A DNA stretch of 39,178 nt. Origin: a virus (lineage: Duplodnaviria > Caudoviricetes). Shown one piece after another: positions 8,515 to 34,673 of this stretch. How positions within the stretch are numbered: position 1 is the stretch's first letter; each line of letters opens with the position of its first letter. The stretch covers positions 1-39,178 of the IMG/VR virus record IMGVR_UViG_3300033405_000040. One strand, 5' to 3'. The notes beneath the pieces were generated by a model. That model was given only the letters and a program-made list of their open reading frames with translations, was not told where the DNA came from and did not search any database. Both the position numbers and the translations under genes were made by a program.

Positions 8515-8520
8515 TTGAAG

Positions 8521-9981: not shown

Positions 9982-9997
9982 AGAAGGCTCGAAGGAA

Positions 9998-10375: not shown

Positions 10376-10380
10376 GAACT

Positions 10381-10390
10381 ATCATACATA
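10381..10390 (-). promoter_or_regulatory. -10 element TATG-TATGAT, leaderless promoter
   Basis: TATGAT ends 5 nt before ATG 10375; no Shine-Dalgarno. Confidence 0.55.
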
Positions 10391-10404
10391 AGACGCTAGA
10401 TAAC

Positions 10405-12141: not shown

Positions 12142-12193
12142 CGAGAAAAAATAAAAATAAAAGGGCGGAAGCTACTACAATTGCGATGAAATC

Positions 12194-13705
12194 TTAGCCG
12201 TCATCTTTCCCATGCAAGAGGGGCTTAAGACCAGCAGCCCTTCGAAATTCATCTTCAACCCACTGACGTGCAGTCACAATTGCTTCTGGAGTTAAACGAT
12301 CATGCGATACCCAGGACCGGTATTCTCCTGGCGTACCTTTATATAACACAACGTCTTTTGAAAAATCAAGGGAAGCTTTGTCGAATTGAATGTTGTGTTT
12401 CTCAGGAGACTCGAAAATTGGCGTACCCTCATATGGAGTCGTAATGGATACATCTGCATCATCGAGGCCCTCTTGAGCCATCAAAACTAACCAGTTCCGG
12501 AGAGCCTCAATAGACTCCGGTGACTCTCCTGGCAAACCAACCTGCGTGAAAACCTTAGGTCGAATTTTATGCTTCACACATAGACGAACAAAAGCCGTGT
12601 TGTCTTCAAGCGTCGCACCTTTTCGAATATCGCGAAGGATCTTAGCGTCAGCAGCCTCAGCACCTGTGCACATTTGCACGCATCCGGCCTCAGCCATTTT
12701 ACGAAAGACTTCATCTGTCGTAAGATTCTTCCCATTTTTAAAGAATGCGCGCCAAATCACGCCTTCTTCTTTCAACATAGGCAGAAATCGATTAACGAAG
12801 TCCGGTCTTAAATTAATCTCGTCGTCATAGAACATGAAAGCGCGCAGCCCGTAGATTGAACGGATCTGACGGATTTCTTCGCGTACACGCTCCGAAGACT
12901 TAGCCTCGAGCTTCCGATATCCATCCCAGTGTGAGCAGTATGTGCAAGCAAACGGGCATCCCGTAGCGCTAACGATCGAAGTTGCACGTTCTCCACCCAC
13001 AAGATAATGATAGCTCGAAAGATCAATCAAATCGCGCGCTGGCAAAGGCCAACGATCATTTTGATAGACAATCCCTTCGTGAGTAAAAGAAGCAGCTTCT
13101 TCCTTAGGAAGACGACTAGGGAGCTTAATGATTCGTTCGTTGTTCTCCCAGCCAACTTCGCAGTTGTCCTTAAGAACTCGAAGTCCAGTCGTTTTACGAC
13201 CAAGATCAGATCGATTAGCCAAACGCTCTTTAGAACGAGAGACGCGACGTAGGAGCTCAAGGAAACCGGGTTCACCGCCACCGCCGCCTTGATCTGCCAC
13301 TACAATGTAATCAAAGTCATCATCCAAACAACGAGAAGGAGCTGTATTGGCGTGAGGCCCTCCCAATGCAGTAATGCACTTAGTATTGTGAGCCCGAATA
13401 AAAGCGTTCAGCTTTACAACTTGAGGATGCTGGGCAGCCAATGAATAGAACCCAACGAGATCAGCATCCTTCGCGATGTCCCAAAGAACTTTTTCAGCTT
13501 CATCCATGACCGCATCATAACTAGCATGGATAACATCAGGACGCCGCTGCTTAAAACCTGTCAAGTCAGCAACACATACCTCATAGCCCAATTCTCGAGC
13601 CACTGCTCCAATTTGGAGAGGTCCGAGGAAAGGGAAAGCCCGGTCATCGAGCAGGAACGGAGACGGCGGAATGACAAGAACGACCTTGGCCACGCTCATA
13701 CTCAT
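12194..13705 (-). CDS. Cobalamin-binding radical SAM enzyme (class B methyltransferase-like)
   Basis: N-terminal B12-binding-type domain (PFLGPLQIGA, LGGPHAN), GCPFACTYC CxxxCxxC motif, FYDDE, GLPGES. Confidence 0.9.
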   Translation of the reverse strand: MSMSVAKVVLVIPPSPFLLDDRAFPFLGPLQIGAVARELGYEVCVADLTGFKQRRPDVIHASYDAVMDEAEKVLWDIAKDADLVGFYSLAAQHPQVVKLNAFIRAHNTKCITALGGPHANTAPSRCLDDDFDYIVVADQGGGGGEPGFLELLRRVSRSKERLANRSDLGRKTTGLRVLKDNCEVGWENNERIIKLPSRLPKEEAASFTHEGIVYQNDRWPLPARDLIDLSSYHYLVGGERATSIVSATGCPFACTYCSHWDGYRKLEAKSSERVREEIRQIRSIYGLRAFMFYDDEINLRPDFVNRFLPMLKEEGVIWRAFFKNGKNLTTDEVFRKMAEAGCVQMCTGAEAADAKILRDIRKGATLEDNTAFVRLCVKHKIRPKVFTQVGLPGESPESIEALRNWLVLMAQEGLDDADVSITTPYEGTPIFESPEKHNIQFDKASLDFSKDVVLYKGTPGEYRSWVSHDRLTPEAIVTARQWVEDEFRRAAGLKPLLHGKDDG

Positions 13706-13716
13706 TCATGAATGAC

Positions 13717-14835
13717 CTAGCGTAATGTCATTCTAGTTTTGAGTATTCCTTCAAGGCGTCGAGCATTATTCTGCCAAGAAAATTTAGATGCTCGGATTTT
13801 AGATCGAGTATTAATTTCCGCACGGTAATCAGAATCTTGAAGCAGTCGCACCACTTCATCCGTAAATTTATCTAGATTATGTTTAATATCGTGAATCGTG
13901 ACAGCTGCTCCCCCATAAAGTTGGCCGAGCGCATCCACGTCTGACGTCACGGGAGCAGCTCCGGAATAGCAGGCTTCCATGAGGGTATTAGAGAATCCCT
14001 CAGTCCATCGAACGGGATCGCAAGGGTAAGCTAGTACTTCAGCCTCACTCATCTCTCGAGCGATGCGTTTCCGGCTTACAGATTTGAAATGTTCAACCCC
14101 ATAATCTTTCAATCTATCAAGAGCTTCCATGCAGTATAGAGCTCTGTGTTTCTGCTCTTTCATCTCTGGGTCCACATTTGGACCAACAGATCTCATGTGT
14201 GCAAACCAAGGATCGAAATTGTAGAAAATTCGCAAATGCGCAGATGGAACACGACGTCGAATATGAGGCCATTGTTGCAAAAGTAAATGCAAACCTCGAT
14301 CGGGGGAGGATGCATAAATTACGCGTCCTTTGACTTTCTCACAAACATCAAAAGAACTCGTGTCTACTCCGTTATAGAATGATTCCCATTTGTTTGTGGG
14401 AACGGATGGTGCACAAGTCTTGAGGTAATCTGTATGAGTCTCACTCAGGCCACCGATCATATCAACAAACGGTTCCCAACCTGGACGACAGTATCCGAAG
14501 TCATTCAACTGTTGATCAACCACCCGAAGCGGGCCCGGTTCCACTCCGTGAATGAAATCTGGATTCATCCATGCCATGATGACATCAAATTGACGTTTAT
14601 CAGAAGCTACATACGCATCATAATGGCGAATGGTAGTTCCATACCAGCTCCAGGCATCAGGAGTGTTGACAGTGATAGTAAAAATCGTAACTTCATGCCC
14701 GAGAGCAGCCATTTCTTTGGCATAACAGAAGCAAGCAACCTCTGAACCCGTTAACCCTCGATCATCATCAAAAAGACGTGTGAAATCAAATGGTCGCGAG
14801 ATGCAAAATGATCCGAAGACAAAAGCGATCTTCAT
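13717..14835 (-). CDS. Glycosyltransferase family 4 (GT-B)
   Basis: GLTGSE, YASSPDRGL, EGFSNTLMEA (E-x7-E); paralog of the upstream gene. Confidence 0.88.
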   Translation of the reverse strand: MKIAFVFGSFCISRPFDFTRLFDDDRGLTGSEVACFCYAKEMAALGHEVTIFTITVNTPDAWSWYGTTIRHYDAYVASDKRQFDVIMAWMNPDFIHGVEPGPLRVVDQQLNDFGYCRPGWEPFVDMIGGLSETHTDYLKTCAPSVPTNKWESFYNGVDTSSFDVCEKVKGRVIYASSPDRGLHLLLQQWPHIRRRVPSAHLRIFYNFDPWFAHMRSVGPNVDPEMKEQKHRALYCMEALDRLKDYGVEHFKSVSRKRIAREMSEAEVLAYPCDPVRWTEGFSNTLMEACYSGAAPVTSDVDALGQLYGGAAVTIHDIKHNLDKFTDEVVRLLQDSDYRAEINTRSKIRASKFSWQNNARRLEGILKTRMTLR

Positions 14836-15965
14836 GATTGTCTCCGGATCAGAGCAGTTTGAAAAATCTGCTCGAGTCTGTCAGTCAGTTTTGACCAGCT
14901 ATGCTGCTCTGCAAGAGCTCGAGACTTGGCAGTAATTCGTTTTCGATAATCTTCATCAGTCAATGAGCGAATTACCATCTCAGTCCATTCATTCAAGTGT
15001 TCCCGGACAGGGCTCTCAACCATCGTTTCAACCCAGTCACCATAGACACATCCAAGCGAGTCCACTTTAGCAGTCACAGGGATTAAACCGGCGGCACAAG
15101 CTTCCATGAGAGTAGCGGAAAAGCCTTCAGTATATGTCACCGTGTCACATGGGTATGCAAGCACAATGGCGGATGCCATTTCTTCTGCCATCCTGACACG
15201 ACTGATGGATTTGAAGTGTTCAACTCCTTGGTTTTTGAGTCTAACAAATGCCTCGCGAATATAATAAGCGCGATAAGCGCATTCGCGAATGTGTGGATGG
15301 TGCCCTTGTCCGTCACAACCTAGAAGATTATTGGCCCAGTCATCGAAATTATAGAAGACTCTCAGAGTCGCATCCGGAACCCGTCGTTTGATTAGAGGCC
15401 ATTGTTGCAGCAACCAATGAAGACCCCGATCGGGAGAAGACGCATACAGAATTCGACCGGGAATCCTATCCATTGTCGGATAAACGGTGGGGTCGCATCC
15501 ATTAGGAAGCACGGTCCATTTATGGGCACTTCCATATACTTGAGTCATATGGGCGAGATGAGCCGAACACGGACTCGTGAATATATCTACGAATGATTCA
15601 AATCCTGGTTTGCAGTATGTGAAATCATTTAGTTGTTGATTAATGATTCTAATGGCTTTCAATGACGCATATCGAAGTTGATCGGGTTCATTCCAGGAGA
15701 GAACGAAATCTGAACCTTCTCCTCGGTCATCTGTCCACATACTAATAGGAAAAACTCGAATCCCATCCCAAAGGTGTCCTTCAGCAGGACATGAAACTAA
15801 CGGCGCGAAAATTCTAACGGAATGGCCGCGAAATGCGAGTTCTTTCGCGAAACTGAGAAACGAGATTTCAGAACCGGTCAATCCACGAGGATCATGATAA
15901 ATCCTCGTGAAATCAAAAGGTCTGGGGCCACAAGCCCAAGAACCGTAGACGAAGGTCAGTTTCAC
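14832..15965 (-). CDS. Glycosyltransferase family 4 (GT-B)
   Basis: GLTGSE, YASSPDRGL, EGFSATLMEA; GTGA/ATGA coupled to both neighbours. Confidence 0.88.
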   Translation of the reverse strand: MKLTFVYGSWACGPRPFDFTRIYHDPRGLTGSEISFLSFAKELAFRGHSVRIFAPLVSCPAEGHLWDGIRVFPISMWTDDRGEGSDFVLSWNEPDQLRYASLKAIRIINQQLNDFTYCKPGFESFVDIFTSPCSAHLAHMTQVYGSAHKWTVLPNGCDPTVYPTMDRIPGRILYASSPDRGLHWLLQQWPLIKRRVPDATLRVFYNFDDWANNLLGCDGQGHHPHIRECAYRAYYIREAFVRLKNQGVEHFKSISRVRMAEEMASAIVLAYPCDTVTYTEGFSATLMEACAAGLIPVTAKVDSLGCVYGDWVETMVESPVREHLNEWTEMVIRSLTDEDYRKRITAKSRALAEQHSWSKLTDRLEQIFQTALIRRQS

Positions 15966-16915
15966 TTTTTTGCCGGGTCTACGTTATTCCGAAACCATTC
16001 AACGGTCTTTTCAATCCCGCTACCGTAATGGACTCTCGGTTCCCAGCCAAGCTTCTCTCGAGCTTTGGTGATGTCCGGACAACGTTGCTTCGGGTCGTCT
16101 TCAGGAAGAGGTTTGAAACAAATTTTCGGATTATTTCCAAAAGCAATCTGAACATCTGTAGCGACTGATAAGATAGAACGTTCGTCAGGATTACCAATAT
16201 TAATTACTGGAACAATTCTCGGAACATGGTCCATCTCGGACATGCAAATGAGACCTTGAACCGTATCAGTCACATAACAAAAACTGCGTGTTTGACTTCC
16301 ATCTCCATAAACGGTCAGACCTTCTCCTCGCATGCCTTGCATAATGAGATTCGGGAGAAGTCGACCGTCGTCATGCGCCATTCGAGGACCATATGTATTG
16401 AAAATCCGTGCGATGCGAACGCTAGTCCCATACTGTTGCGCCCATGAGACAGCAAGGGATTCACCCACCCGCTTGCCTTCATCATAGCAGGAACGAATCC
16501 CGACAGGATTCACATTGCCGAAATAAGTTTCAGGTTGGGGGTGAACTGTCGGATCTCCGTAGACTTCAGAAGTAGAAGCGATAACAATTCTCGAGCTCGC
16601 ATTCCTAGCACACTCCAATACGTTGAGAGTCCCGAGAACTGCTGTCCTAATCGTGTTAACAGGATTGCGTTGATATTGAACAGGACTAGCAGGACAAGCC
16701 AAATGGAAAATCACATCACATTCAAGATTCCAAGGTTCGCAAACGTCGTGTCGAAAGAATTCGAAATTAGATAATGGAAGCAAATGTTCAATATTAGCAC
16801 GCCTGGACGTGAACAAGTTGTCCATACACACAACATCAAATTCGAGTTCACATAACTTCTCGCAAAGATGACTCCCAATGAATCCAGCTCCACCCGTCAC
16901 TAGCGCTTTTGTCAT
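15962..16915 (-). CDS. uxs: UDP-glucuronate decarboxylase (UDP-xylose synthase) family SDR
   Basis: VTGGAGFIGSHL, HLACPASP, ASTSEVYGDP, GNVNPVGIRSCYDEGKR, RIFNTYGPRM, DDPKQRCPDI are all UXS-type motifs. Confidence 0.9.
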   Translation of the reverse strand: MTKALVTGGAGFIGSHLCEKLCELEFDVVCMDNLFTSRRANIEHLLPLSNFEFFRHDVCEPWNLECDVIFHLACPASPVQYQRNPVNTIRTAVLGTLNVLECARNASSRIVIASTSEVYGDPTVHPQPETYFGNVNPVGIRSCYDEGKRVGESLAVSWAQQYGTSVRIARIFNTYGPRMAHDDGRLLPNLIMQGMRGEGLTVYGDGSQTRSFCYVTDTVQGLICMSEMDHVPRIVPVINIGNPDERSILSVATDVQIAFGNNPKICFKPLPEDDPKQRCPDITKAREKLGWEPRVHYGSGIEKTVEWFRNNVDPAKK

Positions 16916-19900
16916 GACATGAAGCCCTTATATTGAGGGACAACCTTCAATGAAACATCTTGAATGACGTCCCGAATCATCTTATCCCATTCACGCGCCA
17001 GAGTCTCCCAACTAAAATGGTCTCTGGCGTAATCTTGAAGCTTGAGACGATCAGACTCGTTTTGTTCTCGCATGGCTGCAACAACTGCATCAATGAACTG
17101 GTTTTGATAATTTAGACTCAACCAATCTCCAGGGATCATAACTCCCCGAGAACCGACCGTCTCATTGAGTGCTGCAATAGGAGAAGTGACCATTCTCAAA
17201 CCAGCCGCATGAGCTTCCATTGCTGAAATACAAGAAGTTTCTGCGAACCAAGTTGGATAGGCCCAAACACCGCTCTTCAAATATTCTTCTGCGAGCTGAC
17301 CTTGAGGAACTCTTCCGTGGAAAGTAACTCCGGCCGACTCGTAGTCATGAAGCAACTTCTTTAGAGATGAAATAAGTATTTTCTGACCCTCGTCAGCACA
17401 AGCTTCCCAGGTCTGGAAGCCATAGAAAATATGCAATTCTGCGCCAGGGATTTTTTCTCTTACCCTTGGCCAAATTCGACAGGCCACTTCCATTCCTCGA
17501 TCGGGACTAGAACTATAGACAGCGCGATAAGGATTACGGGTTATATGTTTATCGAACCGCTTCAAATCAATCCCATTTCGAGTTTTGATCATTTGTGATG
17601 GGTGCAAATACGGATAAAATCCTAGGACATTTTGAAGATGCCAGTCCGATAGAACTAATACACGATCGATTTTAAGGGCTCTCTCATGAGTGAGACTCCC
17701 GCCACAGTGAATATCGTGAATCCAGCAAAACGTTACTTTCCTCGAAACATTGTGAGATACATCCACAGCTTCAGGCCTACGAGATGTAATCAATACGTCG
17801 CAGGTGATGTTACAATATTTAGAAGAATCAAGATACTGAACCCCGTCAAAATTCCCTTCCAAACCTTGCCGACAATCACCGTAAACCCGAATATGGTGGC
17901 CCATCCTGGCCAAATTACGAGCCATCTCAATAACGGCTGTCTCTGATCCACCAATCCCATTCTTTGTTGCTGTGTCGGGATTCCATGGTTCAACACCATG
18001 GCCCACATAGAAAATAATGTCGACCGGAGACGAAACAGGTTCAATGACTGGCTTCGGTACTAATTTCAAGGTGGGTCGATCACTGATTTTATTTTCCGAA
18101 CGACGCCCACGAGCACAGATTGAAGCCTGAGTAGGAATAGGGACGGGTTGCTCTGATTGATCAATCAGAACTTCGATCCCTTCAACATCAACAAGCCCGG
18201 CACTTCGAAGGTCATCTAAAACTTCTGACAAGATCGGAGCGCGAACGTGTTCGCGCGGAGATTCAACATCCCACTTTGGGTGAAATACTACTGAAGCTCC
18301 TTGACACCATGAGCCTCGAGGAGTGCTCAAAACTAGAGTGCCGCCCGGCTTCACATAAGCCGCAGCTCTCTTAATAAGAGCAACTGGGTCTTCTACATGC
18401 TCATAAACTTCGAGCAATGAAACCACATCAAACTGTGTCGGGAAATTTGCTGGCAGTGGATCTTCACCAAGAAGTGCTGCAATATGCTGGGCTCCGGTAT
18501 TAAATTCTCTAGCCTTTGCATTGGCGATTTCCACCATGCGTGTTGACATATCGACACCCCAAGCTTTAATCCCCATCAAGCCAGCGCGATTTGTAATCCA
18601 TCCATCCAAACTTCCAATATCCAAAAGTGTACCAGTTCGGTATTCATTTAGAACATTGAACAAGTATCTGTATCTCGCATATTGACCATGCGGAGGACGA
18701 ATTTCTTCAGGAATCGGGATGGCTTCGCACTCAGCGCCATAATTCTGATAAATAGAACGATATGCTTCAGGGTGATCAATGTGATTAAGCATGACGTCGA
18801 TTTTGCGACGCATCTCTTTAAGATCCGGATGATTTCGAATGCTCCAAGGAGCTGATTTCAGTAATGAACGAGCGGCCAACACCTCATCATGTCGAAGCAA
18901 CTGGACCCACAGCAATTTGATCATTCCAAGAGTTGTCCACCCAGGAAGCTCGATAGGATCGAAAACTTTTGGAATATCTTTCGGGATGATAAATCCAGAC
19001 GGTGAAAGCGTCATTGTTGGATTTGAAGCTAACATATGATCAGGAAGAGGTGATGCTGACACAGAAGGGGCCGGCAAGGAATTTGATGGTAGCTTTCCAG
19101 CGATCGCATCCAAAACAACCTTTTGAGTTTCAGGTGTCACGGCTCCGATATCAATGAGCTCGAGGAATCCCTCTTCTACTTTTTTACGGGCCAAATGCTT
19201 TACATAAAGCTGTCGATTTTGCTGACATCCTGCATCGTCAGGTCGGACACTCAATGCTTTATTTGCACTTTCAAGAGCTCCAACCACGTCACCAACATGA
19301 TTCAACGCCAAATTCAGGAATTTGTGAATTTCAAATTCTCTCTCGAGTGGGTTGATGAACAGCATGGTCTTGGTGGGAGGAAGCGCAAGACCTGCACGGA
19401 AAAAGTGAATTGATCGTTCCCAATTTCTTCTCTCGTGTGGACCCTTTCGCTGCGCCAGAAAGTAAAAACTTCTGCCTAGTGAAAAATAGGCTTCAGCCCA
19501 ACCTTCACGCACAGTGAGAGCTTTAGTAGCCCATTCCACTGCATGATCATAGTCACCTGTCGATGAATAATGATCTGCAATCTTTAAACAAGCTAGGAAA
19601 CGTTCATCGTCCCAACCAGACAATTCAACATATCGCTTGTGAAATTTAATGGCGTTGTCAATATCACCGGCATTGCCGTATTCGAGTCCGAGATAATAAA
19701 GCATCCGGACGTCTTCTTCGCCCTTCTGCGCATACCACTTCTTCAGAATGCGAAGATTTCGTCCTGATTCAATCTTCTTCTTTGTGAAATTCCGTCGATG
19801 AACGATCCGGACTTTCTCATATTCCGGTTTCATGACCGGTTGTTCGGGGTTCAAGATCTCATGAACGGGCCCCAACCAGCGAAATGCTGATTTCGGGCCT

Positions 19901-20331
19901 GATGCAAGTCTTTCCCGATAATGGCGACAAGTTACGTTCCCGAGATCGTCATGAGCGTATTCGTATGGAAAGAATACGAGTGTCGGAAAATTATTACGAA
20001 TCTTGTCTTGTTCGATAATGATCGAACTCAAATGTTCCGCCCCTACGACTTCATCATCACCATCGATCCACATGGTCCATGGCTGAGTAGCCATTTCATA
20101 ACTACGCTGACGAGCCATTGAAAAATTCTCGATCAAACCATCTACATCATTGCAGGCGGTAAAGACCTCGAATTTATCAGCATATTTCCGGGCAATATCC
20201 GGAGTGGAATCCGTAGAGCCCGTATCTACAATATTGATTTCCGCGACATGCGGACGAATGGATCGAAGACAAGCTTCTAGCTGTGCCTCCTCGTTTTTGA
20301 CGATGAGGCACAGCGAGACAGGCGCGGTCAT
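16912..20331 (-). CDS. Fusion: GT2 glycosyltransferase + TPR + SAM methyltransferase + GT4 glycosyltransferase
   Basis: SLCLIVKNEE...VDTGSTD...WIDGDD (SunS-like GT2); TPR helices (YYLGLEY, AEAYFSLG); LLDIGS...EVYEHVEDP...KPGG (class I MTase); GGSE...YSSSPDRG...ETSCISAMEA (GT4). Confidence 0.9.
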   Translation of the reverse strand: MTAPVSLCLIVKNEEAQLEACLRSIRPHVAEINIVDTGSTDSTPDIARKYADKFEVFTACNDVDGLIENFSMARQRSYEMATQPWTMWIDGDDEVVGAEHLSSIIIEQDKIRNNFPTLVFFPYEYAHDDLGNVTCRHYRERLASGPKSAFRWLGPVHEILNPEQPVMKPEYEKVRIVHRRNFTKKKIESGRNLRILKKWYAQKGEEDVRMLYYLGLEYGNAGDIDNAIKFHKRYVELSGWDDERFLACLKIADHYSSTGDYDHAVEWATKALTVREGWAEAYFSLGRSFYFLAQRKGPHERRNWERSIHFFRAGLALPPTKTMLFINPLEREFEIHKFLNLALNHVGDVVGALESANKALSVRPDDAGCQQNRQLYVKHLARKKVEEGFLELIDIGAVTPETQKVVLDAIAGKLPSNSLPAPSVSASPLPDHMLASNPTMTLSPSGFIIPKDIPKVFDPIELPGWTTLGMIKLLWVQLLRHDEVLAARSLLKSAPWSIRNHPDLKEMRRKIDVMLNHIDHPEAYRSIYQNYGAECEAIPIPEEIRPPHGQYARYRYLFNVLNEYRTGTLLDIGSLDGWITNRAGLMGIKAWGVDMSTRMVEIANAKAREFNTGAQHIAALLGEDPLPANFPTQFDVVSLLEVYEHVEDPVALIKRAAAYVKPGGTLVLSTPRGSWCQGASVVFHPKWDVESPREHVRAPILSEVLDDLRSAGLVDVEGIEVLIDQSEQPVPIPTQASICARGRRSENKISDRPTLKLVPKPVIEPVSSPVDIIFYVGHGVEPWNPDTATKNGIGGSETAVIEMARNLARMGHHIRVYGDCRQGLEGNFDGVQYLDSSKYCNITCDVLITSRRPEAVDVSHNVSRKVTFCWIHDIHCGGSLTHERALKIDRVLVLSDWHLQNVLGFYPYLHPSQMIKTRNGIDLKRFDKHITRNPYRAVYSSSPDRGMEVACRIWPRVREKIPGAELHIFYGFQTWEACADEGQKILISSLKKLLHDYESAGVTFHGRVPQGQLAEEYLKSGVWAYPTWFAETSCISAMEAHAAGLRMVTSPIAALNETVGSRGVMIPGDWLSLNYQNQFIDAVVAAMREQNESDRLKLQDYARDHFSWETLAREWDKMIRDVIQDVSLKVVPQYKGFMS

Positions 20332-20336
20332 GCGCC

Positions 20337-20346
20337 ACTTTACCGA
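20337..20346 (-). promoter_or_regulatory. -10 element TCGG-TAAAGT, leaderless promoter of the glycosylation operon
   Basis: Ends 5 nt before ATG 20331; the same 10-mer occurs at 2675-2684. Confidence 0.65.
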
Positions 20347-20361
20347 GGTTAACCTCGGTAA
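20340..20361. repeat. 22-bp perfect palindrome TTACCGAGGTTAACCTCGGTAA
   Basis: Equals its own reverse complement; fills most of the 34-bp intergenic gap and overlaps the -10 element. Confidence 0.9.
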
Positions 20362-20365
20362 GAAA

Positions 20366-21316: not shown

Positions 21317-21353
21317 TGAATGCTCCTTTAGTAAATTCCAATATAGAGGTAAA

Positions 21354-22385: not shown

Positions 22386-22391
22386 ACTTCC

Positions 22392-24089: not shown

Positions 24090-27000
24090 ATATTCCTAGT
24101 TTCAGTGTAGGACGTGAGTGTATTACCAGTATATGTGTAAACGATAGTCACTTCTCCAATCACGATTGTTCCAGTAGAATCGTAAATCTTTCGGACTTCT
24201 TGCGTGAGCTTATTACCTGTGTATGTGTAGTCAATGGATTTAATCAGATTTCCAGTTGAAGCATTCGTCCAGGTTTCTCGAGTAAGTTTGTTGCCGGTAT
24301 AAGTTGCAGCATAGTTATTTGTAACCCAAACTGGGTCGTTACATGCAAGCAGAACGTCATTAAAATATGACGGACCAGTTGCACCTTGCGGACCAGTTGC
24401 TCCAGTAACCCCCGGAGATCCTTGTGTTCCTTGAGGTCCGGTCACTCCCGTTGAACCTCGAGGCCCGGTAGGTCCGGTGGCACCAGTAACACCAGGCGAG
24501 CCTTGTGTACCTTGAGGTCCGGTCGCGCCAGTAGCTCCAGGAGATCCTTGTGTGCCTTGAGGACCACCAAAAGGACCTGTAGCACCGCGGGCACCAGTTA
24601 CTCCGGTAGCACCTTGAGGACCGGTGACTCCAGTAACTCCAGGAGATCCTTGTGTTCCTTGGGGTCCAGTCGCTCCAGTGACTCCACGAGCACCAGTGGG
24701 TCCAGTCGCTCCAGTGACACCTGGTGATCCTTGTGGACCCATGGCACCTTGTGGCCCAGTAGGTCCGGTTGCACCAGTTACTCCCGGGGAACCCTGTGTA
24801 CCTTGCGGTCCAGTTGGTCCAGTAACACCAGGTGATCCTTGTGTGCCCTGTGTGCCTTGCGGGCCCGTAGGACCAGTTGAACCAGTGATTCCTTGCGGTC
24901 CCGTCGATCCTTGCGGTCCCGTAGCCCCAGTTAGTCCTGTGACCCCTGGAGATCCCTGTGTTCCTTGCGGACCAGTCGCACCGGCTGGACCAATCGGACC
25001 CGTTGCACCTGTGACTCCTGGCGAACCCTGAGTGCCCTGTGGACCTGTGGGTCCAGTCGCACCTTGTGAACCAGTAACTCCGGTGATGCCTGGCGACCCT
25101 TGAGTGCCTTGAGGACCTGTGGCTCCTTGCGGTCCTGTTGGTCCGGTCGCACCAGTTACTCCTGGAGATCCTTGTGGACCGGTAACACCTGGTGATCCTT
25201 GTGTTCCCTGAGGACCAGTTGCTCCCGTGACTCCAGTAACTCCCGGAGAGCCCTGTGTTCCTTGAGGACCGGTAGCGCCTTGTGGCCCCGTGGGTCCAGT
25301 GGCGCCGGTAACACCAGGTGATCCTTGCGTGCCTTGAGTTCCCTGAGGACCCGTTGAACCCTTAGGACCAGTTGGACCTGTGGCTCCAGTAACTCCGGTG
25401 ACGCCCGGTGAACCTTGAGGTCCAGTTGGTCCAGTTGCACCTGTTACCCCGGGCGATCCTTGTGTGCCTTGAACTCCTGTAGCCCCTTGAGGACCGGTGG
25501 CACCTGTAACTCCAGGGCTACCTTGTGGTCCAGTTGGACCAGTTGGACCAGTCGCTCCAGTGACACCCGGGCTACCTTGTGGTCCGGTTGCACCAGTAAA
25601 TCCAGTTACTCCAGGTGAACCTTGCGTTCCTTGAGGACCAGTAGGCCCAGTTGCTCCAGTCAGACCGGTAACACCAGGCGAACCTTGTGGCCCTGTAAAC
25701 CCGGTCGCTCCTTGCGGGCCCGTAGGACCAGTTGCACCAGTTACTCCGGGTGATCCTTGTGTTCCTTGAGGACCAGTAGCACCTTGCGGCCCAGTTGGAC
25801 CTGTGACACCCGTGACACCCGTGACGCCAGGAGATCCTTGAGTGCCTTGTGGCCCTGTAGATCCAGTGACTCCAGTAACTCCTGGAGAGCCTTGCGTCCC
25901 TTGAGGTCCTGTTGCTCCCTGAGGACCAGTTGGTCCAGTCGCACCAGTAACACCGGGCGATCCTTGCGGTCCAGTCGGGCCAGTCGCACCCGTGACACCA
26001 GTTATTCCAGGCGATCCTTGTGCGCCTTGAGGTCCTGTAGCGCCTTGCGGACCCGTTGGACCGGTCGCGCCTGTCAGACCAGTAACACCTGGCGATCCTT
26101 GTGTTCCTTGTGGACCAGTTGCACCTTGCGGTCCGGTGGGCCCGGTTGCACCCTGCGGACCTGTAGGCCCGGTCGCACCAGTAACACCCGGTGATCCCTG
26201 GGTTCCCTGAGGACCTGTCGCGCCAGTAACTCCGGTGATTCCAGGGGAACCTTGAGTGCCCTGCGGTCCTGTTGCTCCCTGTGGTCCGGTCGCTCCCGTG
26301 ACTCCAGTAACACCTGGAGAACCTTGGGTGCCTTGTGGTCCTGTTGCTCCAACTGGTCCAGTCGGTCCGGTGGGTCCAGTGATACCTGGACTGCCTTGCG
26401 TACCTTGCGGACCAGTTACACCAGTAACTCCGGGCGATCCTTGAGTGCCCTGCGGTCCTGTTGCTCCCTGAGGACCAGTAGGTCCGGTGGCTCCGGTGGC
26501 TCCAGGGGATCCTTGTGGCCCTGTCGCTCCGGTGACACCAGTGACCCCGGGCGATCCTTGTGAACCTTGAGGACCAGTTGCTCCCTGTGGTCCTGTAGGT
26601 CCAGTAGCACCGGTTGCACCCTGGGGGCCCGTCGCGCCTGTAACTCCGGGAGATCCCTGTGTGCCTTGTGGTCCTGTAGATCCAGTTAGTCCTGTGACTC
26701 CTGGGGAACCCTGTGTTCCTTGTGGTCCAGTTGCTCCTTGAGGACCAGTTGGGCCTGTGGCTCCAGTTGCGCCTTGTGGGCCGGTAGAACCCGTGACACC
26801 AGGAGATCCTTGTGTTCCTTGGGGGCCAGTCGCACCAGTGACTCCGGTGACACCAGGACTACCCTGCGTTCCTTGAGGACCTGTAGCACCAGTTGTCCCT
26901 TGCGGTCCCGTAGGTCCGGTGGCTCCGGTAACACCTGGAGAACCTTGGGTGCCTTGCGGACCAGTTGGACCTTGCGGACCAGTCGGTCCAGTCGCTCCAG

Positions 27001-30000
27001 TTAGGCCAGTAACACCAGGCGAGCCTTGTGTGCCTTGAGGTCCGGTGGGCCCGGTTGCACCTGTGGCTCCAGGAGAGCCCTGAGGACCTGTAGGACCAGT
27101 CGCACCCGTGACACCGGGCGATCCTTGCGGTCCAGTCGCACCTGTCAGACCGGTGACACCTGGCGATCCCTGCGTGCCTTGAGGACCGGTTGCACCTGTA
27201 ATCCCTTGCGGACCAGTTGCACCTGTAATCCCTTGCGGACCAGTTGCACCTGTAATCCCTTGCGGACCAGTCGGTCCAGTGGCCCCGGTGACACCGGGTG
27301 AGCCCTGGGTTCCCTGCGGTCCTGTAAATCCGGTCGCACCTTGTGGTCCGGTCGCACCAGTAACTCCAGGAGAACCTTGGGTACCCTGTGGACCTGTTAC
27401 TCCGGTGACTCCTGGAGATCCTTGCGGTCCCGTCGAACCTTGCGGACCCGTTGGGCCGGTCGCGCCTGTAACTCCGGGACTTCCTTGTGGTCCAGTTGCA
27501 CCTTGAGGACCAGTGGGCCCGGTTGCACCCGTGAGACCGGTGACACCAGGAGACCCTTGCGTTCCTTGAGGACCAGTGGAACCTGTGACGCCTTGTGGTC
27601 CAGTCGCTCCTGTTACTCCAGGTGATCCTTGAGGACCGGTCGCACCCGTGACACCCGGAGATCCTTGCGTGCCCTGGGGACCGGTTGGACCTGTTGCGCC
27701 TGTGACTCCGGGAGATCCCTGCGTTCCTTGAGGACCTGTTGGTCCTGTTGCGCCTGTAACTCCGGTGATTCCGGGGGAACCCTGCGTTCCTTGGGGACCT
27801 GTGGCTCCTTGCGGACCAGTGGGGCCCGTAGCTCCAGTAGTTCCAGTAACCCCCGGAGATCCCTGTGTTCCTTGCGGTCCTGTCGATCCTTGAGGACCGG
27901 TAGGTCCGGTGGCACCTGTGGCGCCTTGTGATCCAGTTGCACCAGTAACTCCTGGTGATCCTTGAGGGCCAGTTGGTCCAGTAACACCAGTAACACCCGG
28001 TGATCCTTGTGTACCTTGAGGACCAGTCGCGCCCGTTACTCCAGGTGATCCCTGAGGACCGGTGGCTCCTGTTACTCCCGTGATGCCTGGTGATCCTTGA
28101 GTGCCTTGCGGTCCAGTTGCACCTTGTGGCCCAGTAGGACCAGTTGCACCGGTAACTCCGTCAGCTCCAGTTGCTCCAGTAACGCCTGGCGATCCCTGGG
28201 TGCCTTGCGGTCCAGTGAAACCTGTTACTCCAGGAGATCCTTGCGTGCCTTGTGGTCCTGTCGGGCCGGTTGCGCCCGTGACACCTGGGGATCCTTGTGG
28301 ACCAGTTGCACCTGTGACGCCATCTACACCAGTAGCTCCTTGCGGGCCTGTGGCACCAGTAACACCCGGGCTACCTTGTGGACCCGTGGCGCCGGTCAAT
28401 CCAGTAACACCAGGCGAGCCTTGTGTGCCCTGAGGTCCGGTTGCACCTTGAGGACCAGTGGGTCCGGTTGCACCAGTAACTCCATCAGCTCCTGTCGCGC
28501 CTGTTACTCCGGGAGATCCTTGTGGACCAGTCGGGCCAGTGGCACCAGTTACTCCAGGAGATCCCTGTGTTCCTTGAGGACCTGTGGCTCCTTGAGGACC
28601 AGTTGGACCTGTCGCTCCGGTGACACCATCCGCACCTGTAGCGCCTTGAGCTCCAGTCGCTCCTGTAATCCCAGGCGAACCTTGTGTTCCTTGTGTTCCT
28701 TGTGGACCGGTAGGCCCGGTTGCACCAGTGGTACCCGGACTGCCCTGAGGGCCAGTTGCTCCATCAGGACCAGTCGCACCAGTGACACCAGGCGATCCTT
28801 GAGGACCAGTAGGCCCCGTCGCGCCTGTTATTCCAGGTGATCCCTGAGTGCCTTGAGGACCAGTCGGACCAGTAGCTCCTGTAACTCCGTCTGCACCAGT
28901 TGCACCCTGAGGTCCCGTCGCACCTGTGACGCCCGGGGATCCTTGAGTACCCTGTGGACCGGTGGGCCCAGTAGCACCGGTCGCGCCATCGGCACCAGTT
29001 GCACCCTGTGGACCAGTGGCTCCTGTAACTCCATCAGATCCAGTGGCGCCTTGAGGTCCGGTCGCACCAGTTACACCAGGTGATCCCTGAGTACCTTGCG
29101 GTCCGGTCGGCCCTGTGGCACCTGTTACTCCATCAGCTCCAGTTGCGCCCTGAGGGCCAGTAGGACCAGTTGCTCCGGTAACGCCTTGCGGACCAGTCGC
29201 TCCAGTAACTCCATCCGCTCCAGTAACTCCAGTGACTCCTGGTGATCCCTGAGGACCCGTAGGGCCTGTTGCTCCAGTAACACCAGGTGATCCTTGAGTG
29301 CCCTGTGGACCTGTGGCACCAGTTACTCCGTCTGCACCAGTAGCACCCTGAGGACCAGTTGCTCCCGTAATGCCTGGTGATCCCTGAGGACCGGTAGGGC
29401 CTGTCGCGCCTGTTACTCCGTCTGCACCAGTTGCACCTGTTACCCCGGGAGAACCTTGCGTCCCCTGTGGACCAGTTGGACCTGTGGCACCAGTAATTCC
29501 GGGACTACCTTGTGGACCAGTTGCTCCGGTAACACCGTCAGAACCAGTTGCTCCTTGTGAACCCGTAGCTCCCTGTGGTCCTGTTGGACCCGTGGCCCCT
29601 GTGACACCATCCGCACCAGTTGCGCCTTGCGGACCAGTCGGTCCGGTTGCTCCAGTTACTCCATCAACTCCCGTTGCACCTTGAGGACCAGTCGCTCCAG
29701 TGACACCTGGTGACCCCTGTGGACCAGTAGATCCCTGCGGACCGGTAGGTCCGGTTGCTCCGGTTACTCCATCTGCACCAGTAGCTCCCTGAGGACCTGT
29801 AGGGCCAGTTGCACCAGTAGTTCCATCAGCTCCAGTCGCACCTTGTGGACCAGTCGCTCCAGTAATGCCAGGAGAGCCTTGTGTGCCTTGGGGACCAGTG
29901 GGGCCTGTCGCTCCTTGAGGTCCAGTGAATCCTGTGACACCAGGAGATCCCTGTGGACCCGTAGCCCCATCCGCACCAGTTGCTCCAGTTACTCCATCTG

Positions 30001-32983
30001 CACCTGTTGCACCTTGTGGCCCAGTGGCACCAGTTACTCCATCAGCCCCTGTGGCTCCGTCAGGACCTGTAGCCCCTGTTACTCCATCAGTTCCAGTTGC
30101 ACCTTGCGGTCCAGTTGGTCCTGTGGCTCCAGTAACTCCATCAGGCCCGGTTGCTCCTGTGACTCCGGGACTACCTTGAGGACCTGTTGCGCCTTGCGGA
30201 CCCGTAGCGCCTGTTACTCCGTCTGCACCAGTCGGACCTTGTGGACCTGTCGGTCCTGTGGCCCCGGTGGCACCATCAATTCCAGTTGCTCCTTGAGGTC
30301 CTGTGGCTCCAGTAATTCCAGGTGATCCCTGTGTACCTTGTGGTCCTGTAGCTCCGGTAACTCCATCTGCTCCAGTAGCACCTGTGACACCCGGAGATCC
30401 CTGTGGGCCAGTTGCGCCAGTTGCGCCTTGGGGTCCAGTGGCACCAGTTACTCCGTCTGCACCAGTTGCTCCATCTGCACCAGTTGCTCCGGTGATTCCA
30501 GGTGAACCTTGAGTGCCTTGTGGTCCAGTTGCACCAGTTACTCCATCAACCCCGGTTGCACCTTGTGGGCCCGTAGGTCCGGTTGCACCAGTTACTCCAT
30601 CTGCACCAGTTGCTCCAGTTACTCCATCGACACCAGTGGCCCCTTGGGGTCCAGTTGAACCAGTTACACCATCGACACCAGTAGCACCTTGTGGCCCAGT
30701 TGCGCCAGTTACCCCTGGTGATCCTTGAGGACCTGTAGCCCCCGTTACACCGTTTGAACCTGTCGCCCCTTGAGGACCGGTAGGTCCAGTTACTCCAGTA
30801 ACACCATCGGCACCAGTTGCTCCCTGTGAGCCTGTAGGTCCAGTAGCACCGGTTGCACCTTGTGGGCCAGTCGCGCCAGTAGCTCCAGGAGATCCTTGTG
30901 TGCCTTGAGGACCTGTCGCGCCTTGGGGTCCAGTGACACCAGTTACTCCATCAATTCCAGTTGCACCTTGGGGTCCAGTCGCGCCCGTTACACCTGGGCT
31001 GCCTTGCGGACCCGTAGCTCCTGTTGGACCAGTGGCTCCGGTAACACCTTGAGGACCAGTGGCTCCGGTAACACCGGGCGATCCTTGTGGACCAGTCGTG
31101 CCAGGTGATCCTTGCGTTCCTTGGGGGCCAGTAGCTCCTGTGACTCCAGTTGCTCCAGGAGAGCCCTGTGTTCCTTGTGCTCCAGTCGGACCAGGAGATC
31201 CTTGCGGTCCAGTTGCACCAGTAACTCCATCAGCTCCATTCGCACCGGTCGGGCCTTGAGCACCGGTCGGGCCTTGAGGACCTGGAAGTCCAGTAGCTCC
31301 TCGAGGACCTGGCGTACCTTGAATACCTTGCGGTCCGGGTGGACCAGTAGGACCTGTCGCACCCGTAGGGCCTGTTGCGCCAGTTACTCCATCTGCACCA
31401 GTAGCGCCTTGTGGACCTGTGGCTCCTTGTGGACCGGTCGGGCCAGTTGGCCCGGTAGCGCCTGTAATCCCTTGTGGACCCGTAGCACCTTGCGGCCCAG
31501 TAGCACCCTGCGGCCCAGTTGGACCGGTTGCACCAGTAACTCCTTGTGGGCCAGTCGCTCCTTGAGGACCAGTTGGACCAGTAACGCCTTGTGGCCCAGT
31601 AGGTCCGGTTGCACCAGTTACTCCCGGGGAACCCTGTGTACCTTGCGGTCCAGTTGGTCCAGTAACACCAGGTGATCCTTGTGTGCCCTGTGTGCCTTGA
31701 GGACCAGTAGGACCAGTTGAACCAGTGATTCCTTGCGGTCCCGTCGATCCTTGCGGTCCCGTAGCGCCTATTGGACCGGTCGCGCCTGTAACTCCTTGAG
31801 GACCGGTCGCGCCTGTAACTCCGGGAGATCCTTGTGGACCAGTTGGACCTTGCGGTCCCGTAGCACCAGTGGGTCCAGTCGCGCCTTGCGGCCCGGTCGC
31901 CCCCGTGGGTCCAGTTGCGCCCTGAGGACCCGTGGGTCCAGTTGCGCCCGTTACACCTTGAAGTCCGGTCGCACCTTGTGGACCAGTCGCACCTTGTGGA
32001 CCTGTTGGTCCGGTCACTCCGGTGACACCCGTCGCGCCCTGAAGTCCCGTCGCGCCCTGTGGGCCAGTAACACCAGGAGAACCCTGCGGTCCGGTCGTTC
32101 CGGGGCTTCCTTGGGCACCCGTAGCTCCAGTGACTCCTTGCGGACCAGTTGCGCCTTGAGGACCAGTTGCGCCTGTTACTCCAGGGTTGCCTTGAGGGCC
32201 TGGTAGTCCTGTGGCGCCTCGGGGGCCAGGAGTCCCTTGGATACCTTGTGGCCCCGGAGGACCCGTGGGTCCAGTTGGACCAGTAGCACCGGTAACTCCA
32301 GGCGATCCTTGCGTCCCTTCAGGACCAGTTGCACCTTCAGGACCAGTTGCACCAGCGGGGCCTGTGGGTCCAGTCGCACCCGTAACGCCTTGAAGGCCCG
32401 TCGCTCCTTGAGGTCCAGTTGGACCAGTCTCTCCAATAGAACCGGTTACTCCTTGCGGACCAGTAGGGCCTGTAGCACCCGTCACACCTTGCGGGCCAGT
32501 AGCGCCGGTAACTCCCGGAGATCCTTGAGGTCCAACTGGACCAGGAGAACCTTGCGTTCCTTGAGCTCCTGTTGAACCCTGAGGCCCAGTGTTTCCTTGT
32601 GGCCCAGTAGCTCCAGTGACCCCTTGAGCTCCTGTAACACCGGTCACACCATCGGCGCCCGTTGAACCTTGAGGTCCAGTCGCTCCAGTTGCTCCCTGCG
32701 GACCAGTGGGGCCCGTAGCTCCCGTAACACCTTGCGAACCAGTTGCACCTTCAGGACCAGTTGAACCTTGAGGTCCAGTCGGTCCTGTCGCACCAGTTAC
32801 TCCATCAACTCCAGTTGCACCCTGAGGTCCAGTCGCTCCTTGAGGTCCAGTTGCACCGGTAACCCCGTCAACTCCGGTCGGGCCCTGAATACCTGTCGGC
32901 CCTGGTGATCCTTGCGGGCCTTCAGGGCCTGTAGCGCCGGTCACTCCAGAACGACAAGGTGCTCCTCGAGGATTATCGATCAT
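24086..32983 (-). CDS. Giant Thr-rich collagen-like protein (2965 aa)
   Basis: 12-aa N-terminus, about 2860 aa of Gly-X-Y ([18 protein letters not shown]) with one visible interruption (GPF-G-GPQ), and a 93-aa C-terminal domain with three TYTGNxLT repeats. Confidence 0.95.
24747..24925. repeat. 179-bp direct repeat, copy A (partner 31587-31765)
   Basis: By-eye alignment gives 176/179 identity at an offset of 6840 bp. Confidence 0.85.
27183..27271. repeat. 27-bp tandem repeat, about 3.3 copies, in the collagen gene
   Basis: GGACC(A/G)GTTGCACCTGTAATCCCTTGC, encoding (GPQGITGAT)n on the minus strand. Confidence 0.9.
31587..31765. repeat. 179-bp direct repeat, copy B (partner 24747-24925)
   Basis: See copy A. 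Confidence 0.85.
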
Positions 32984-32986
32984 GAG

Positions 32987-34264
32987 TCAGCTGGAAGCCG
33001 TTAGAGTGATACCAAGTGTGCCTGGTGCTCCAGGAACTCCTTTCTCTGAGGCAATCAGTCTGACTGTGGTGCTCCCACCGGGAATGGTGACGTAAAGAAT
33101 GAAACTAATGGGATTATTGTCTTGAGGCGCAGGACCATCCAAATCTTGCAGAAACATGTTTTGAGTGGAGTATGGAGAAGAAATTGTGATGCAAGAATCA
33201 ACAAGAGTCTCCTGAGTCTCTTCAACACCGTTTCCCCACAGGATATAGAAAGTCGGGAAGCCCCCTGGAGCTCCACGAGTGTAGGTGATATAGAAAGTCA
33301 CATGATGCACCCCGTGTGGAATCATGTAGGGCGGTTGACTGGTGACATTCCCACTCGGCGGCAGGATTTGAGTCAACAGATGGACGGTCCGTGGAATCTC
33401 AAACGGACAGCATGAACCACTTGGGGGAATTGGTGGCACAGGGATCGGAGGAATAACAGGCCCACATGGAGCCGGCGAGTATGAATTAAACGTAGGCCCG
33501 CAACCACAAGGCTCAGGTTCTGAACAATTAGAAAGAAATAATGGCGCCAGAATTACTGGAGCGCGAGAACACGGATCGAAGCAAGACGTGCCGCACAGAA
33601 CAGGCAAAAGTGGTGTGTAAGGGTTAGGAGGATTGATGACTGAGAAGCGCATCGATCTCGACTCGAGCGGCGAGTCAGAGCAAGCCATCCATTCCCAAGT
33701 GATAAGATAATCACCACTACAAACTGAGATATGCCATACGGCATAGTATTCACCAAGACATGCATTCACTGCATAAGTCTTGGGCGAAACGCACCGCCCC
33801 ACAGCATCATAAATTGTCCAGAAAACTGCAAAGGCGTTGATCGGCACGCCATCAGAGTTTTTCAAGAAAAGTGGCAGGTCACCACGTCGAGTCGTATAAC
33901 CGGACAAATATGTAAACTCGCCCGGCTTAGGAATGGCTTCCTCAGTGAGAGGCTGGCAGCCGTAACTCGAAGGATCGACTACGAAAAACTGTTCAGTAAA
34001 TCTGCGAGCAGGAAGCCCTGATTCTGGGCGAACTTCCCAGTCAATGCGATAATTTCCGTTTTTCGCGTTAGCAAACCAAGGGGCATAGTATTCACCCACT
34101 TTGGCTCGAATTGCTGGTAATCTTTTACCAGATGTCAATACTCCATCAGAAGCAAACACGGTCCAGAGGACCTCAAATGCATCTTGAGGATAGCCAGAGT
34201 CATTACTCAAGTAGAGCCTGAGGTCTCCTCTGGATAGCGCACTTCGAATGAGAAAGGCCGCCAT
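32987..34264 (-). CDS. Protein with two tandem Ig-like repeats, Cys/Pro-rich linker and C-terminal beta-domain
   Basis: RGDLxLxLxN...P.[DN]AF.V.WT...GEYYA.W...G.Y.I.WE occurs twice; linker PVLCGTSCFDPC...PCGCGP...GSCCP. Confidence 0.75.
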   Translation of the reverse strand: MAAFLIRSALSRGDLRLYLSNDSGYPQDAFEVLWTVFASDGVLTSGKRLPAIRAKVGEYYAPWFANAKNGNYRIDWEVRPESGLPARRFTEQFFVVDPSSYGCQPLTEEAIPKPGEFTYLSGYTTRRGDLPLFLKNSDGVPINAFAVFWTIYDAVGRCVSPKTYAVNACLGEYYAVWHISVCSGDYLITWEWMACSDSPLESRSMRFSVINPPNPYTPLLPVLCGTSCFDPCSRAPVILAPLFLSNCSEPEPCGCGPTFNSYSPAPCGPVIPPIPVPPIPPSGSCCPFEIPRTVHLLTQILPPSGNVTSQPPYMIPHGVHHVTFYITYTRGAPGGFPTFYILWGNGVEETQETLVDSCITISSPYSTQNMFLQDLDGPAPQDNNPISFILYVTIPGGSTTVRLIASEKGVPGAPGTLGITLTASS

Positions 34265-34268
34265 GTAC

Positions 34269-34673
34269 TCACTGCTTCACAAAAGAGGCGTTTAGACCGC
34301 CGCTTGGCCCCGAAGATGCAAGTGCTCCGGCAGGAACCACGTCATAATCACGGATGAGTTCAACCCCGAGGCCGACGTTGGTGAAGATGAGACGCCAATA
34401 ACCGACTCGATCTGGGAAGAATCGAACGGAATAATAAGTCAGCCAGGGTGCCGCCAACTCATAGAAATAAACCGTTCCAGAAGCCACGGACGAATCTGGA
34501 ACCAGTGTTCCGTCTTGAAATGGCCAAGCTTGGGGAACATTGTTATAAAAAAGCTTGGGCGCCAAATTAGCTAGAGTGATACCGGTGGCCCGAACAATCC
34601 CGCCCGGAGGGTTGTAAAAATCGAGCTGATCGTAGACGATGGCACCTGCAGATACGAGTCGACCCATACCCAC
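34269..34673 (-). CDS. Small beta-rich hypothetical protein, possibly Ig-like
   Basis: 134 aa; YYSVRFFPDRVGYWRLIF; first gene of the fibre module. Start may be the ATG at 34667. Confidence 0.65.
   Translation of the reverse strand: MGMGRLVSAGAIVYDQLDFYNPPGGIVRATGITLANLAPKLFYNNVPQAWPFQDGTLVPDSSVASGTVYFYELAAPWLTYYSVRFFPDRVGYWRLIFTNVGLGVELIRDYDVVPAGALASSGPSGGLNASFVKQ

Follow-up and report, generated by a model that had tools for sequence, protein, structure and literature searches.

Does a tailed phage build a giant collagen fiber and decorate it with glycosylation enzymes of its own? This question is raised by the virus record IMGVR_UViG_3300033405_000040, which we analyzed over its full 39,178 bases and refer to as the window. 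From position 34673 down to 12194, eleven open reading frames (ORFs) follow each other on the minus strand with intergenic gaps of −53 to +34 nucleotides, in agreement with the co-oriented block among virion genes that had been delineated in a preliminary description of this DNA. The block encodes a collagen-like protein of 2965 amino acids and a set of predicted glycosylation enzymes downstream of it. Judged from sequence comparisons, these enzymes probably O-glycosylate the phage's own giant Thr-rich collagen, which we predict to be a virion fiber. Positions 32987-34673 hold core genes of the clade that are also found in collagen-free relatives, a caveat on where the block begins.

The collagen gene (24086..32983, minus strand) encodes 953 Gly-X-Y triplets in two runs (932 and 21) between an N-terminus of 12 and a C-terminal domain of 93 amino acids. 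The hundreds of Thr residues described before amount to 609, and Thr occupies 518 of the 953 Y positions (54%). Only 1.7% of the residues in the repeat are charged, and the whole protein contains five Lys, one of them at a Y position. Folded as a triple helix, it would reach about 0.8 micrometer at 0.286 nm per residue (a collagen rise of 2.9 Å per residue is given in PMC8968730). The gene has no exact repeat as long as 150 nucleotides. Two public peat-metagenome assemblies, both of which may represent the source sample, each span positions ~11100-24370 in one contig with zero or one difference. Because both contigs stop about 180 nucleotides further on, where the repeat begins, the exact collagen length rests on one assembly. 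Relatives encode giant collagens of 2424, 2477, and 3960 amino acids; the last of these (G026, L295:1684-13566) has 1189 triplets and would measure about 1 micrometer if folded.

The lead enzyme of the block, assigned by family and profile matches, is a fusion protein of 1139 amino acids (16912..20331, minus strand). Its N-terminal GT2 glycosyltransferase domain (PF00535, E = 8.8e-11), in which D90, D92, and D93 of the DxD motif are invariant in 43 homologs, is followed by TPR families at residues 210-380, and the same protein contains a class I methyltransferase domain, which was detected in 25 of 99 homologous loci, and a GT4 glycosyltransferase domain. Designed TPR proteins aside, the best solved match of residues 1-380 was GmaR (E = 1.9e-16), then SunS (E = 1.9e-6). 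The GT-A domain with its DxD motif, the TPRs C-terminal to it, and the adjoining Thr-rich collagen likewise fit the earlier proposal that the GT2-TPR part primes the collagen; it is likely a protein O-glycosyltransferase of the SgtA/GmaR type and a candidate for the priming enzyme. The fusion gene lies 3.8 kb downstream of the collagen gene, a distance of less than 120 nucleotides in several other viral loci. It is followed by a homolog of UDP-glucuronate decarboxylase, or UDP-xylose synthase (15962..16915, minus strand), that matches human UXS1 over residues 3-312 (E = 4e-102) and keeps the NAD-binding, Thr-Ser-Glu, and YxxxK motifs in this alignment; its product is predicted. Two stand-alone GT4 glycosyltransferases come next, one being the fusion's conserved partner, present in almost every locus for which downstream sequence is available (14832..15965, minus strand), and the other assigned by family match (13717..14835, minus strand). 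The four glycosyltransferase domains and the UDP-xylose synthase listed before were thus all recovered.

Its homologies identify the window as part of the genome of a jumbo tailed phage. The product of the ORF at 10405..11304 (minus strand) matched the head-tail connector, or neck protein, of Tunturiibacter phage Tunturi_5 (E = 2e-31) and gp165 of phage G (E = 4e-8). The ORF at 3..2054 (minus strand), the N-terminal part of a tail sheath gene cut by the contig end, aligned with the annotated Tunturi_5 sheath at 31% identity across 588 columns (E = 2e-51), and the ORF at 2698-3909 matched the Tunturi_5 tail terminator (E = 1e-11). A check for terminase, portal, and capsid genes had been recommended, but none was recognized in the window by Pfam/PHROG/NCBIfam-type family scans, and in three complete relatives the Pfam searches gave a single subthreshold terminase match in one and no sheath match. 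Therefore, the identification as a phage draws on the IMG/VR records and on direct similarity to proteins of Tunturi_5 and phage G. The two nearest relatives (G001 and G002) are complete records of 393 and 436 kb with direct terminal repeats, and their neck proteins are 81% and 85% identical to that of the window. A cellular chromosome, named beforehand as a possible source, is at odds with these neck and sheath homologs and complete phage relatives. This candidate was rejected: the close homologs in the genome_contigs set sit on short contigs of metagenome-assembled genomes, and the GT2-TPR part was found in just 13 of 62 loci, mostly at 23-33% identity. Both complete relatives share one gene order, namely small beta protein, Cys-rich protein, collagen(s), decoration proteins, fusion, variable sugar genes, and neck. 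The sugar genes vary; G001 additionally encodes GT2-like proteins, methyltransferases of the FkbM and other types, a further epimerase, and a UDP-glucose dehydrogenase-like protein.

The neck protein served as an independent anchor for comparing genomes with and without the enzyme. Its alignment retrieved 125 relatives, 80 of which were kept, and 32 contigs of at least 180 kb were searched. GT2-TPR was present in 14 of them, with 85, 73, 81, 53, 15, 43, 1, 58, 10, 6, 19, 15, 7, and 110 collagen matches, that is, 6-110 in 13 contigs and a single one where the collagen is cut by the contig start. The 18 contigs lacking GT2-TPR gave 0-4 collagen matches. In the 12 records with a completeness of 90% or more, the counts were 85, 73, 58, and 19 with the enzyme versus 1, 3, 0, 0, 0, 0, 0, and 1 without it. 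The complete sisters G004 and G006 (neck identity 79% and 75%) have kept the flanking core genes and lack both the cassette collagen and any GT2. On a distant branch, G013 and G016 carry a different GT2-GT2-TPR protein (29-32% identity) at another site, beside a collagen with Thr at 92-98% of the Y positions, and their sisters are devoid of both enzyme and collagen. Fisher and Mann-Whitney tests returned p-values of 4e-8, 3e-6, and 1.6e-7, which we set aside because they ignore kinship.

A similar picture emerged from the side of the enzyme. Used as a single-sequence query against viral contigs, the fusion gave no match, but an alignment of 43 fusion homologs retrieved 155 viral relatives. The best 80 of these 155 gave 55 loci, which four duplicates and one locus without the GT2-TPR part reduced to 50 distinct ones. 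A collagen of at least 20 triplets was located upstream, on the same strand and within 10 kb, in 31 of the 50. Where the identity to the fusion was at least 48%, this applied to 24 of 28 loci, and three of the four close misses hold giant collagens elsewhere on the contig. The prevalence of collagen-free operons that had been named as a possible refutation is thus not seen among the close homologs. In a quick tree of 60 enzymes, in which the collagen status of four rows was assigned from separate results, the window fell into a group of 31 rows that are all collagen-linked (Shimodaira-Hasegawa-like approximate likelihood ratio test [SH-aLRT] 94, not starred), while eight collagen-free small-phage enzymes formed a group of their own (SH-aLRT 100). 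The metagenome loci, many of which are short and overlap the viral set, had a collagen in 24 of 61 cases. GT2-TPR proteins of Bacillales plasmids covered 97-99% of the region at 25-29% identity to the fusion. In one of three plasmid loci examined, pBM500 of Priestia megaterium (L330:1729-7644), such a gene stands divergent from that for a 954-amino-acid protein with 220 Gly-X-Thr triplets and is accompanied by two methyltransferase genes, which makes this locus a cellular counterpart carried on a plasmid.

The composition of the collagens follows the enzyme as well. We compared a family of short collagens, defined by a shared N-terminal domain of 90-100 amino acids (pairwise E values of 1e-3 to 1e-36 within a set of nine sequences). 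In the enzyme-free G004 and G006 (three copies), Thr occupies 2 of 59 Y positions and charged residues 40 of 118 X and Y positions. In the enzyme-bearing G001 and G002 (five copies, encoded far from the operon), the corresponding values are 150 of 393 and 14 of 786. Thr is found at a fraction of at least 0.25 of the Y positions in 70 of the 71 long collagens of the compared loci (median charged fraction 0.007), and an unrelated collagen of the enzyme-free G018 is also charged (21/40). Thr glycosylation has been cited as an alternative route to collagen stabilization (PMC3368898). Collagens of other compositions next to glycosyltransferases were also noted, namely an Asn/Gln/Trp-rich one, an exception to this trend, beside a 1322-amino-acid protein with four GT2 domains (G017, L325:8093-14413) and a non-Thr collagen with Ser at X (L044:475-5637).

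Several observations weigh against glycosylation of the collagen. The contrast in composition compares one lineage with two and is therefore a single contrast. Bacterial collagens commonly have Thr at Y (31.6% overall; PMC8968730); Thr richness alone therefore proves nothing, and it is the switch within a family that counts. G027 (65% complete) has a Thr-rich collagen stretch (0.73) and no GT2-TPR match, and G006 has a Ser-rich collagen stretch and no GT2 at all. In G033 and G034, 15-25 kb separate the operon from the collagens. On the neck tree, only two independent pairs lie on starred (supported) branches, both concordant, and three on all branches (sign test, p = 0.5). The p-value of the gene exchange described below for the radical SAM slot ignores kinship as well. 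Below 48% identity to the fusion, a collagen was found in only 7 of 22 loci. When 19 contigs were searched over their whole length, 14 gave no collagen match, one of them being a complete 60-kb phage; most of these contigs are fragments of 13-66 kb, and of the only two complete ones, one has a collagen and one does not. The pairing of GT2-TPR with long collagens that was to be checked is thus tight within the clade, but in small phages distant homologs of the fusion are unaccompanied by a collagen, and the enzyme family is therefore not restricted to collagens.

The last observations lead to the most serious alternative, improbable as we consider it, that the operon glycosylates other virion proteins, such as the capsid, the tail tube, or Ser/Thr-rich decoration proteins, with the collagen as a neighbor or minor acceptor. 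Two of the small phages place the collagen-free fusion directly after the major capsid gene, and in L041, a 43.9-kb fragment that lacks a collagen, the operon immediately follows the Cys-rich gene; both also count against the collagen as acceptor. Several neighbors in the block consist of 20-24% Ser plus Thr, and the enzymes of mycobacteriophages modify capsid and tail tube (PMC12619734, PMC10877033). However, the collagen-free enzymes, including that of L041, belong to other branches of the tree, homologs of the decoration proteins persist in relatives without the operon, and collagen composition tracks the presence of the enzyme inside one protein family. The small-phage loci, in which a GT2-TPR-GT4 fusion follows the major capsid gene (L064 [MW202524] 1656-11978; L057:8488-13195), are in themselves candidates for capsid glycosylation outside actinophages.

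It is highly unlikely that the enzymes instead alter a host protein or the cell surface of the host, by masking receptors or glycosylating flagellin or pilin, so that rival phages are kept out or defenses disarmed. Such a role would be in line with GmaR, the nearest solved relative, which modifies flagellin (PMC9638930), and with temperate phages that alter the serotype of their host (PMC12619734), but it would leave the link with collagens unexplained. Moreover, a crude hydropathy scan revealed no clear membrane segment in any of the enzymes (highest 19-residue mean 1.58), and family scans of the block detected neither a flippase nor a polymerase or carrier gene. Hypermodification of the phage DNA against host nucleases is still less probable. 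Phage glycosyltransferases are classically known for glucosylating DNA (PMC12619734, PMC9614988), and a base-hydroxylating gene could be encoded elsewhere, the window being a 39-kb genome fragment. However, the operon sits among virion genes, its lead enzyme is of a protein-modifying TPR type, and the thymidylate-synthase/hydroxymethylase family was found in none of five complete relatives, three of which carry the operon (control positive in 10/14). For DNA, this argues against the view, raised in the preliminary description, that only DNA, capsid, or host surface are modified. A search for TET/JBP dioxygenases gave 0/5 in the same relatives, and its control was silent, too. That collagen and enzymes serve a non-virion structure, such as a coat or matrix enclosing infected cells or particles after release, is hardly tenable. 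In its favor, attachment to the virion is deduced from gene position only, and the block encodes a hydrolase-like TIM barrel. Against it, a hydropathy scan of the collagen revealed neither a hydrophobic signal nor a membrane-spanning stretch, the neck genes directly follow the cassette in the clade and in two T4-like phages, and phage collagens are annotated as fibers.

For glycosylation of the collagen fiber, we propose the following mechanism. The GT2-TPR part would bind the collagen in the cytoplasm of the infected cell and add the first sugar, probably an N-acetylhexosamine as with SgtA and GmaR, to Thr or Ser. The three GT4 domains would then extend the glycan, and one of their donors would be the UDP-xylose made by the phage enzyme, for which UDP-glucuronate would be supplied by the host or by a gene beyond the window. 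O-methylation is the likely task of the fused methyltransferase, and C-methylation or deoxygenation of a sugar that of the radical SAM enzyme. The sugars would stabilize and shield the uncharged triple helix and would also be put in trans on the other collagen-bearing proteins of the phage. Finally, the fiber would be anchored near the neck through a 425-amino-acid protein.

To our knowledge, virion glycosylation by tailed phages is known only for mycobacteriophage capsids and tail tubes. In the literature covered, which extends to few subscription papers and not to the supplements of huge-phage surveys, we found no report of a phage that glycosylates its collagen, and the full set of genes, for which no tailed phage had been known at the outset, did not turn up either. 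The system likely works like SgtA-BclA3 of Clostridioides difficile, to judge by analogy, but is phage-borne and has its own variable sugar genes. SgtA is encoded next to bclA3 and adds beta-O-N-acetylglucosamine (GlcNAc) to Thr of BclA3 collagen-repeat peptides; extension and capping complete the native glycan, and the extending enzymes were not identified in that study (PMC7157674). The likeness is one of layout, a GT-A domain followed by TPRs beside a Thr-rich collagen. In contrast to SgtA, the phage enzyme carries methyltransferase and GT4 domains in the same polypeptide, candidate extenders are encoded in the operon, and the collagen is far longer. The nearest natural solved relatives, GmaR (PDB 22ao) and Bacillus SunS (PDB 7msp), are likewise soluble GT2-TPR proteins that act on proteins or peptides, but their acceptors are flagellin, to which GmaR of Listeria monocytogenes attaches GlcNAc (PMC9638930), and a bacteriocin; they add a single sugar and are not fused to GT4 or methyltransferase domains.

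Comparison with viral systems gave partial parallels. Mycobacteriophages are tailed phages that also encode their own enzymes for virion proteins, but their targets are the C-termini of capsid and tail-tube proteins instead of collagen repeats (PMC12619734, PMC10877033), whereas in the present phages the transferase genes are accompanied by genes for nucleotide-sugar synthesis and tailoring. The fusion query matched 25 records at an E value of 1e-5, none of them from a mycobacteriophage, and for moraphages, the available part of PMC12619734 makes no mention of collagen. Mimivirus and other giant viruses share virus-encoded, clade-variable clusters for sugar synthesis, transfer, and methylation and also possess collagens (PMC9614988), but they infect eukaryotes, and the collagen enzymes listed for them act on hydroxylysine (PMC9546862). 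The window collagen, in contrast, has its five Lys in 2965 amino acids, and family scans detected no hydroxylase family in the block. The E. coli prophage proteins EPclA/B are phage-encoded collagen triple-helix proteins as well; they are short, charge-rich, and unglycosylated when recombinant (PMC3368898) and resemble the charged collagens of G004 and G006. If glycosylation of the fiber holds true, it would extend virion glycosylation to collagen fibers in a widespread jumbo-phage clade with an O-antigen-like variable cluster. The occurrence of one protein family in charged and Thr-rich forms would provide a test of folding in long collagens without hydroxyproline or charge pairs, and the compact soluble operon offers candidate extending enzymes of the kind not identified for BclA3.

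The last gene of the block (12194..13705, minus strand) encodes a class B-type radical SAM enzyme. It had been described as B12-dependent; the radical SAM domain with its CxxxCxxC motif is present, but the B12-binding domain scores 28.1 bits, below the cut-off of 32.1 (32.4 for the homolog in L007). In relatives, its slot is held by a sugar C-methyltransferase module. Of 99 de-duplicated loci, 65 have at least 9 kb of downstream sequence; 14 of these carry a radical SAM gene, 39 a PF08484 C-methyltransferase gene, 12 neither, and none both, versus 8.4 expected with both when kinship is ignored. Both genes come after the conserved GT4 gene, that is, in the same slot, which is filled by two radical SAM types about 30% identical to each other. 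D-mycarose 3-C-methyltransferase is the closest match of the C-methyltransferase (E = 9.5e-78), whose gene is accompanied by those for a cupin, an epimerase/dehydratase, and an oxidoreductase. Because of this exchange for a sugar C-methyltransferase, the radical SAM enzyme likely tailors a sugar, with C-methylation favored, rather than capping the chain. Since its best solved match is AprD4, a diol dehydratase according to its NCBIfam name, the reaction may instead be a deoxygenation. The earlier idea that methyltransferases cap the glycan is thus less likely for the radical SAM enzyme. This assignment would provide a predicted substrate class for an uncharacterized group of radical SAM enzymes. 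In two T4-like phages, a cassette of collagen, fusion, GT4, and radical SAM genes stands upstream of the neck (head-tail adaptor) genes (L027:9963-13107 and L269:9461-12574; radical SAM 67-70% identical), which indicates that the cassette has moved between unrelated large-phage lineages. Inteins with LAGLIDADG domains were found in radical SAM and some fusion homologs (L007:6284-8860; P0042, P0046, P0069). Inteins tend to occupy conserved, needed genes.

A more far-reaching version, which we regard as rather unlikely, holds that the near-micrometer fibers need Thr glycans made by the phage itself for their triple helix. With the acquisition of the enzyme, Thr would have replaced charge pairs in all collagens of the phage, and the coat would vary like an O-antigen, with the radical SAM enzyme swapped for the classical sugar C-methyltransferase pathway that makes branched sugars. 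If true, this would amount to a phage glycocalyx with a structural role and to new radical SAM sugar chemistry.

The candidate fiber anchor is the 425-amino-acid protein encoded just upstream of the collagen (32987..34264, minus strand; model predicted local distance difference test [pLDDT] 87.7). It consists of two Ig-like domains related to the N-terminal domain of the neck protein, a Cys-rich linker, and a C-terminal jelly roll, the best structural match of which is XepA (Z = 10.8, root-mean-square deviation 2.5, 98 aligned residues). Foldseek with the whole model gave only diffuse Ig-type matches with template modeling (TM) scores below 0.2. The jelly-roll domain was found in nine loci; in eight it is followed by a collagen (52-77% identity), and a diverged copy (32%) occurs in G006 without collagen. 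Anchoring near the neck is suggested by this pairing, by the N-terminal Asn-Pro-x-Gly that the first collagens share (invariant in 8/8 aligned), and by the position of the cassette upstream of head-tail genes also in the two T4-like phages. It is the weakest step of the mechanism, a tentative proposal that may well be wrong. A predicted complex of the jelly roll with three collagen N-termini (score 0.01; mark 0.32) speaks neither for nor against binding.

The remaining genes of the block are less closely tied to the collagen. A small beta protein of 134 amino acids (34269..34673, minus strand) has no Pfam/PHROG match and is a core gene of the clade rather than specific to the cassette, with homologs in the collagen-free G004, G006, G014, G015, and G022. 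A 565-amino-acid Ser/Thr-rich beta protein with a phrog_8198 domain (22392..24089, minus strand) is probably a virion decoration protein and possibly a second acceptor; its homolog in G002 carries 20 collagen triplets, and homologs also occur in three loci with no collagen in view. Its 343-amino-acid paralog (21354..22385, minus strand) has the same domain, and its nearest Atlas clusters are unnamed tailed-phage proteins. The Ig-like/Cys-rich and two beta-rich proteins that had been assigned to a fiber module are thus present, the Cys-rich one being the protein with the Ig-like pair, linker, and jelly roll, but they also occur in collagen-free relatives, the 425-amino-acid protein in shorter forms. 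The mobile unit therefore comprises the collagen and the glycosylation genes. Finally, a 315-amino-acid accessory protein (20366..21313, minus strand; start at the ATG matching its homologs) was modeled as a (beta/alpha)8 barrel (pLDDT 94.6) close to Cwp19 and GH18 chitinases (Foldseek TM 0.4-0.58), with a profile match to 10yv (E = 1.9e-19). The catalytic motif of GH18 is DxDxE. Asp137 and Glu139 are conserved, but position 135 is Cys, and none of the 52 members of the protein family matched the GH18 Pfam family, so of the GH18-like assignment only the fold holds. This rare protein, with just eight matches across all compared loci, may trim glycans or digest host polysaccharide.

Promoter and terminator scans of positions 10000-25000 gave counts no higher than shuffled sequence. 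Several genes outside the block were noted in passing. A small ATP-dependent DNA ligase-like gene (L001:8385-9173, minus strand, and homologs), not seen in the window, lies between cassette and neck gene on the opposite strand in many relatives. The window encodes a GIY-YIG homing endonuclease with a C-terminal HNH-type domain (36522-37358, minus strand) and a Volactin-family actin homolog (4198-5253, minus strand; PF25216, E = 2e-67) that is located between head-closure and tail-terminator genes and conserved in the clade at 45-77%. An ARC/Pup-proteasome-type AAA ATPase (34718-36220, plus strand; TIGR03689, E = 8e-90 but under the cut-off) is encoded on the opposite strand inside the structural operon; it is also present in G002 at 66% identity and could be a clue to the host.

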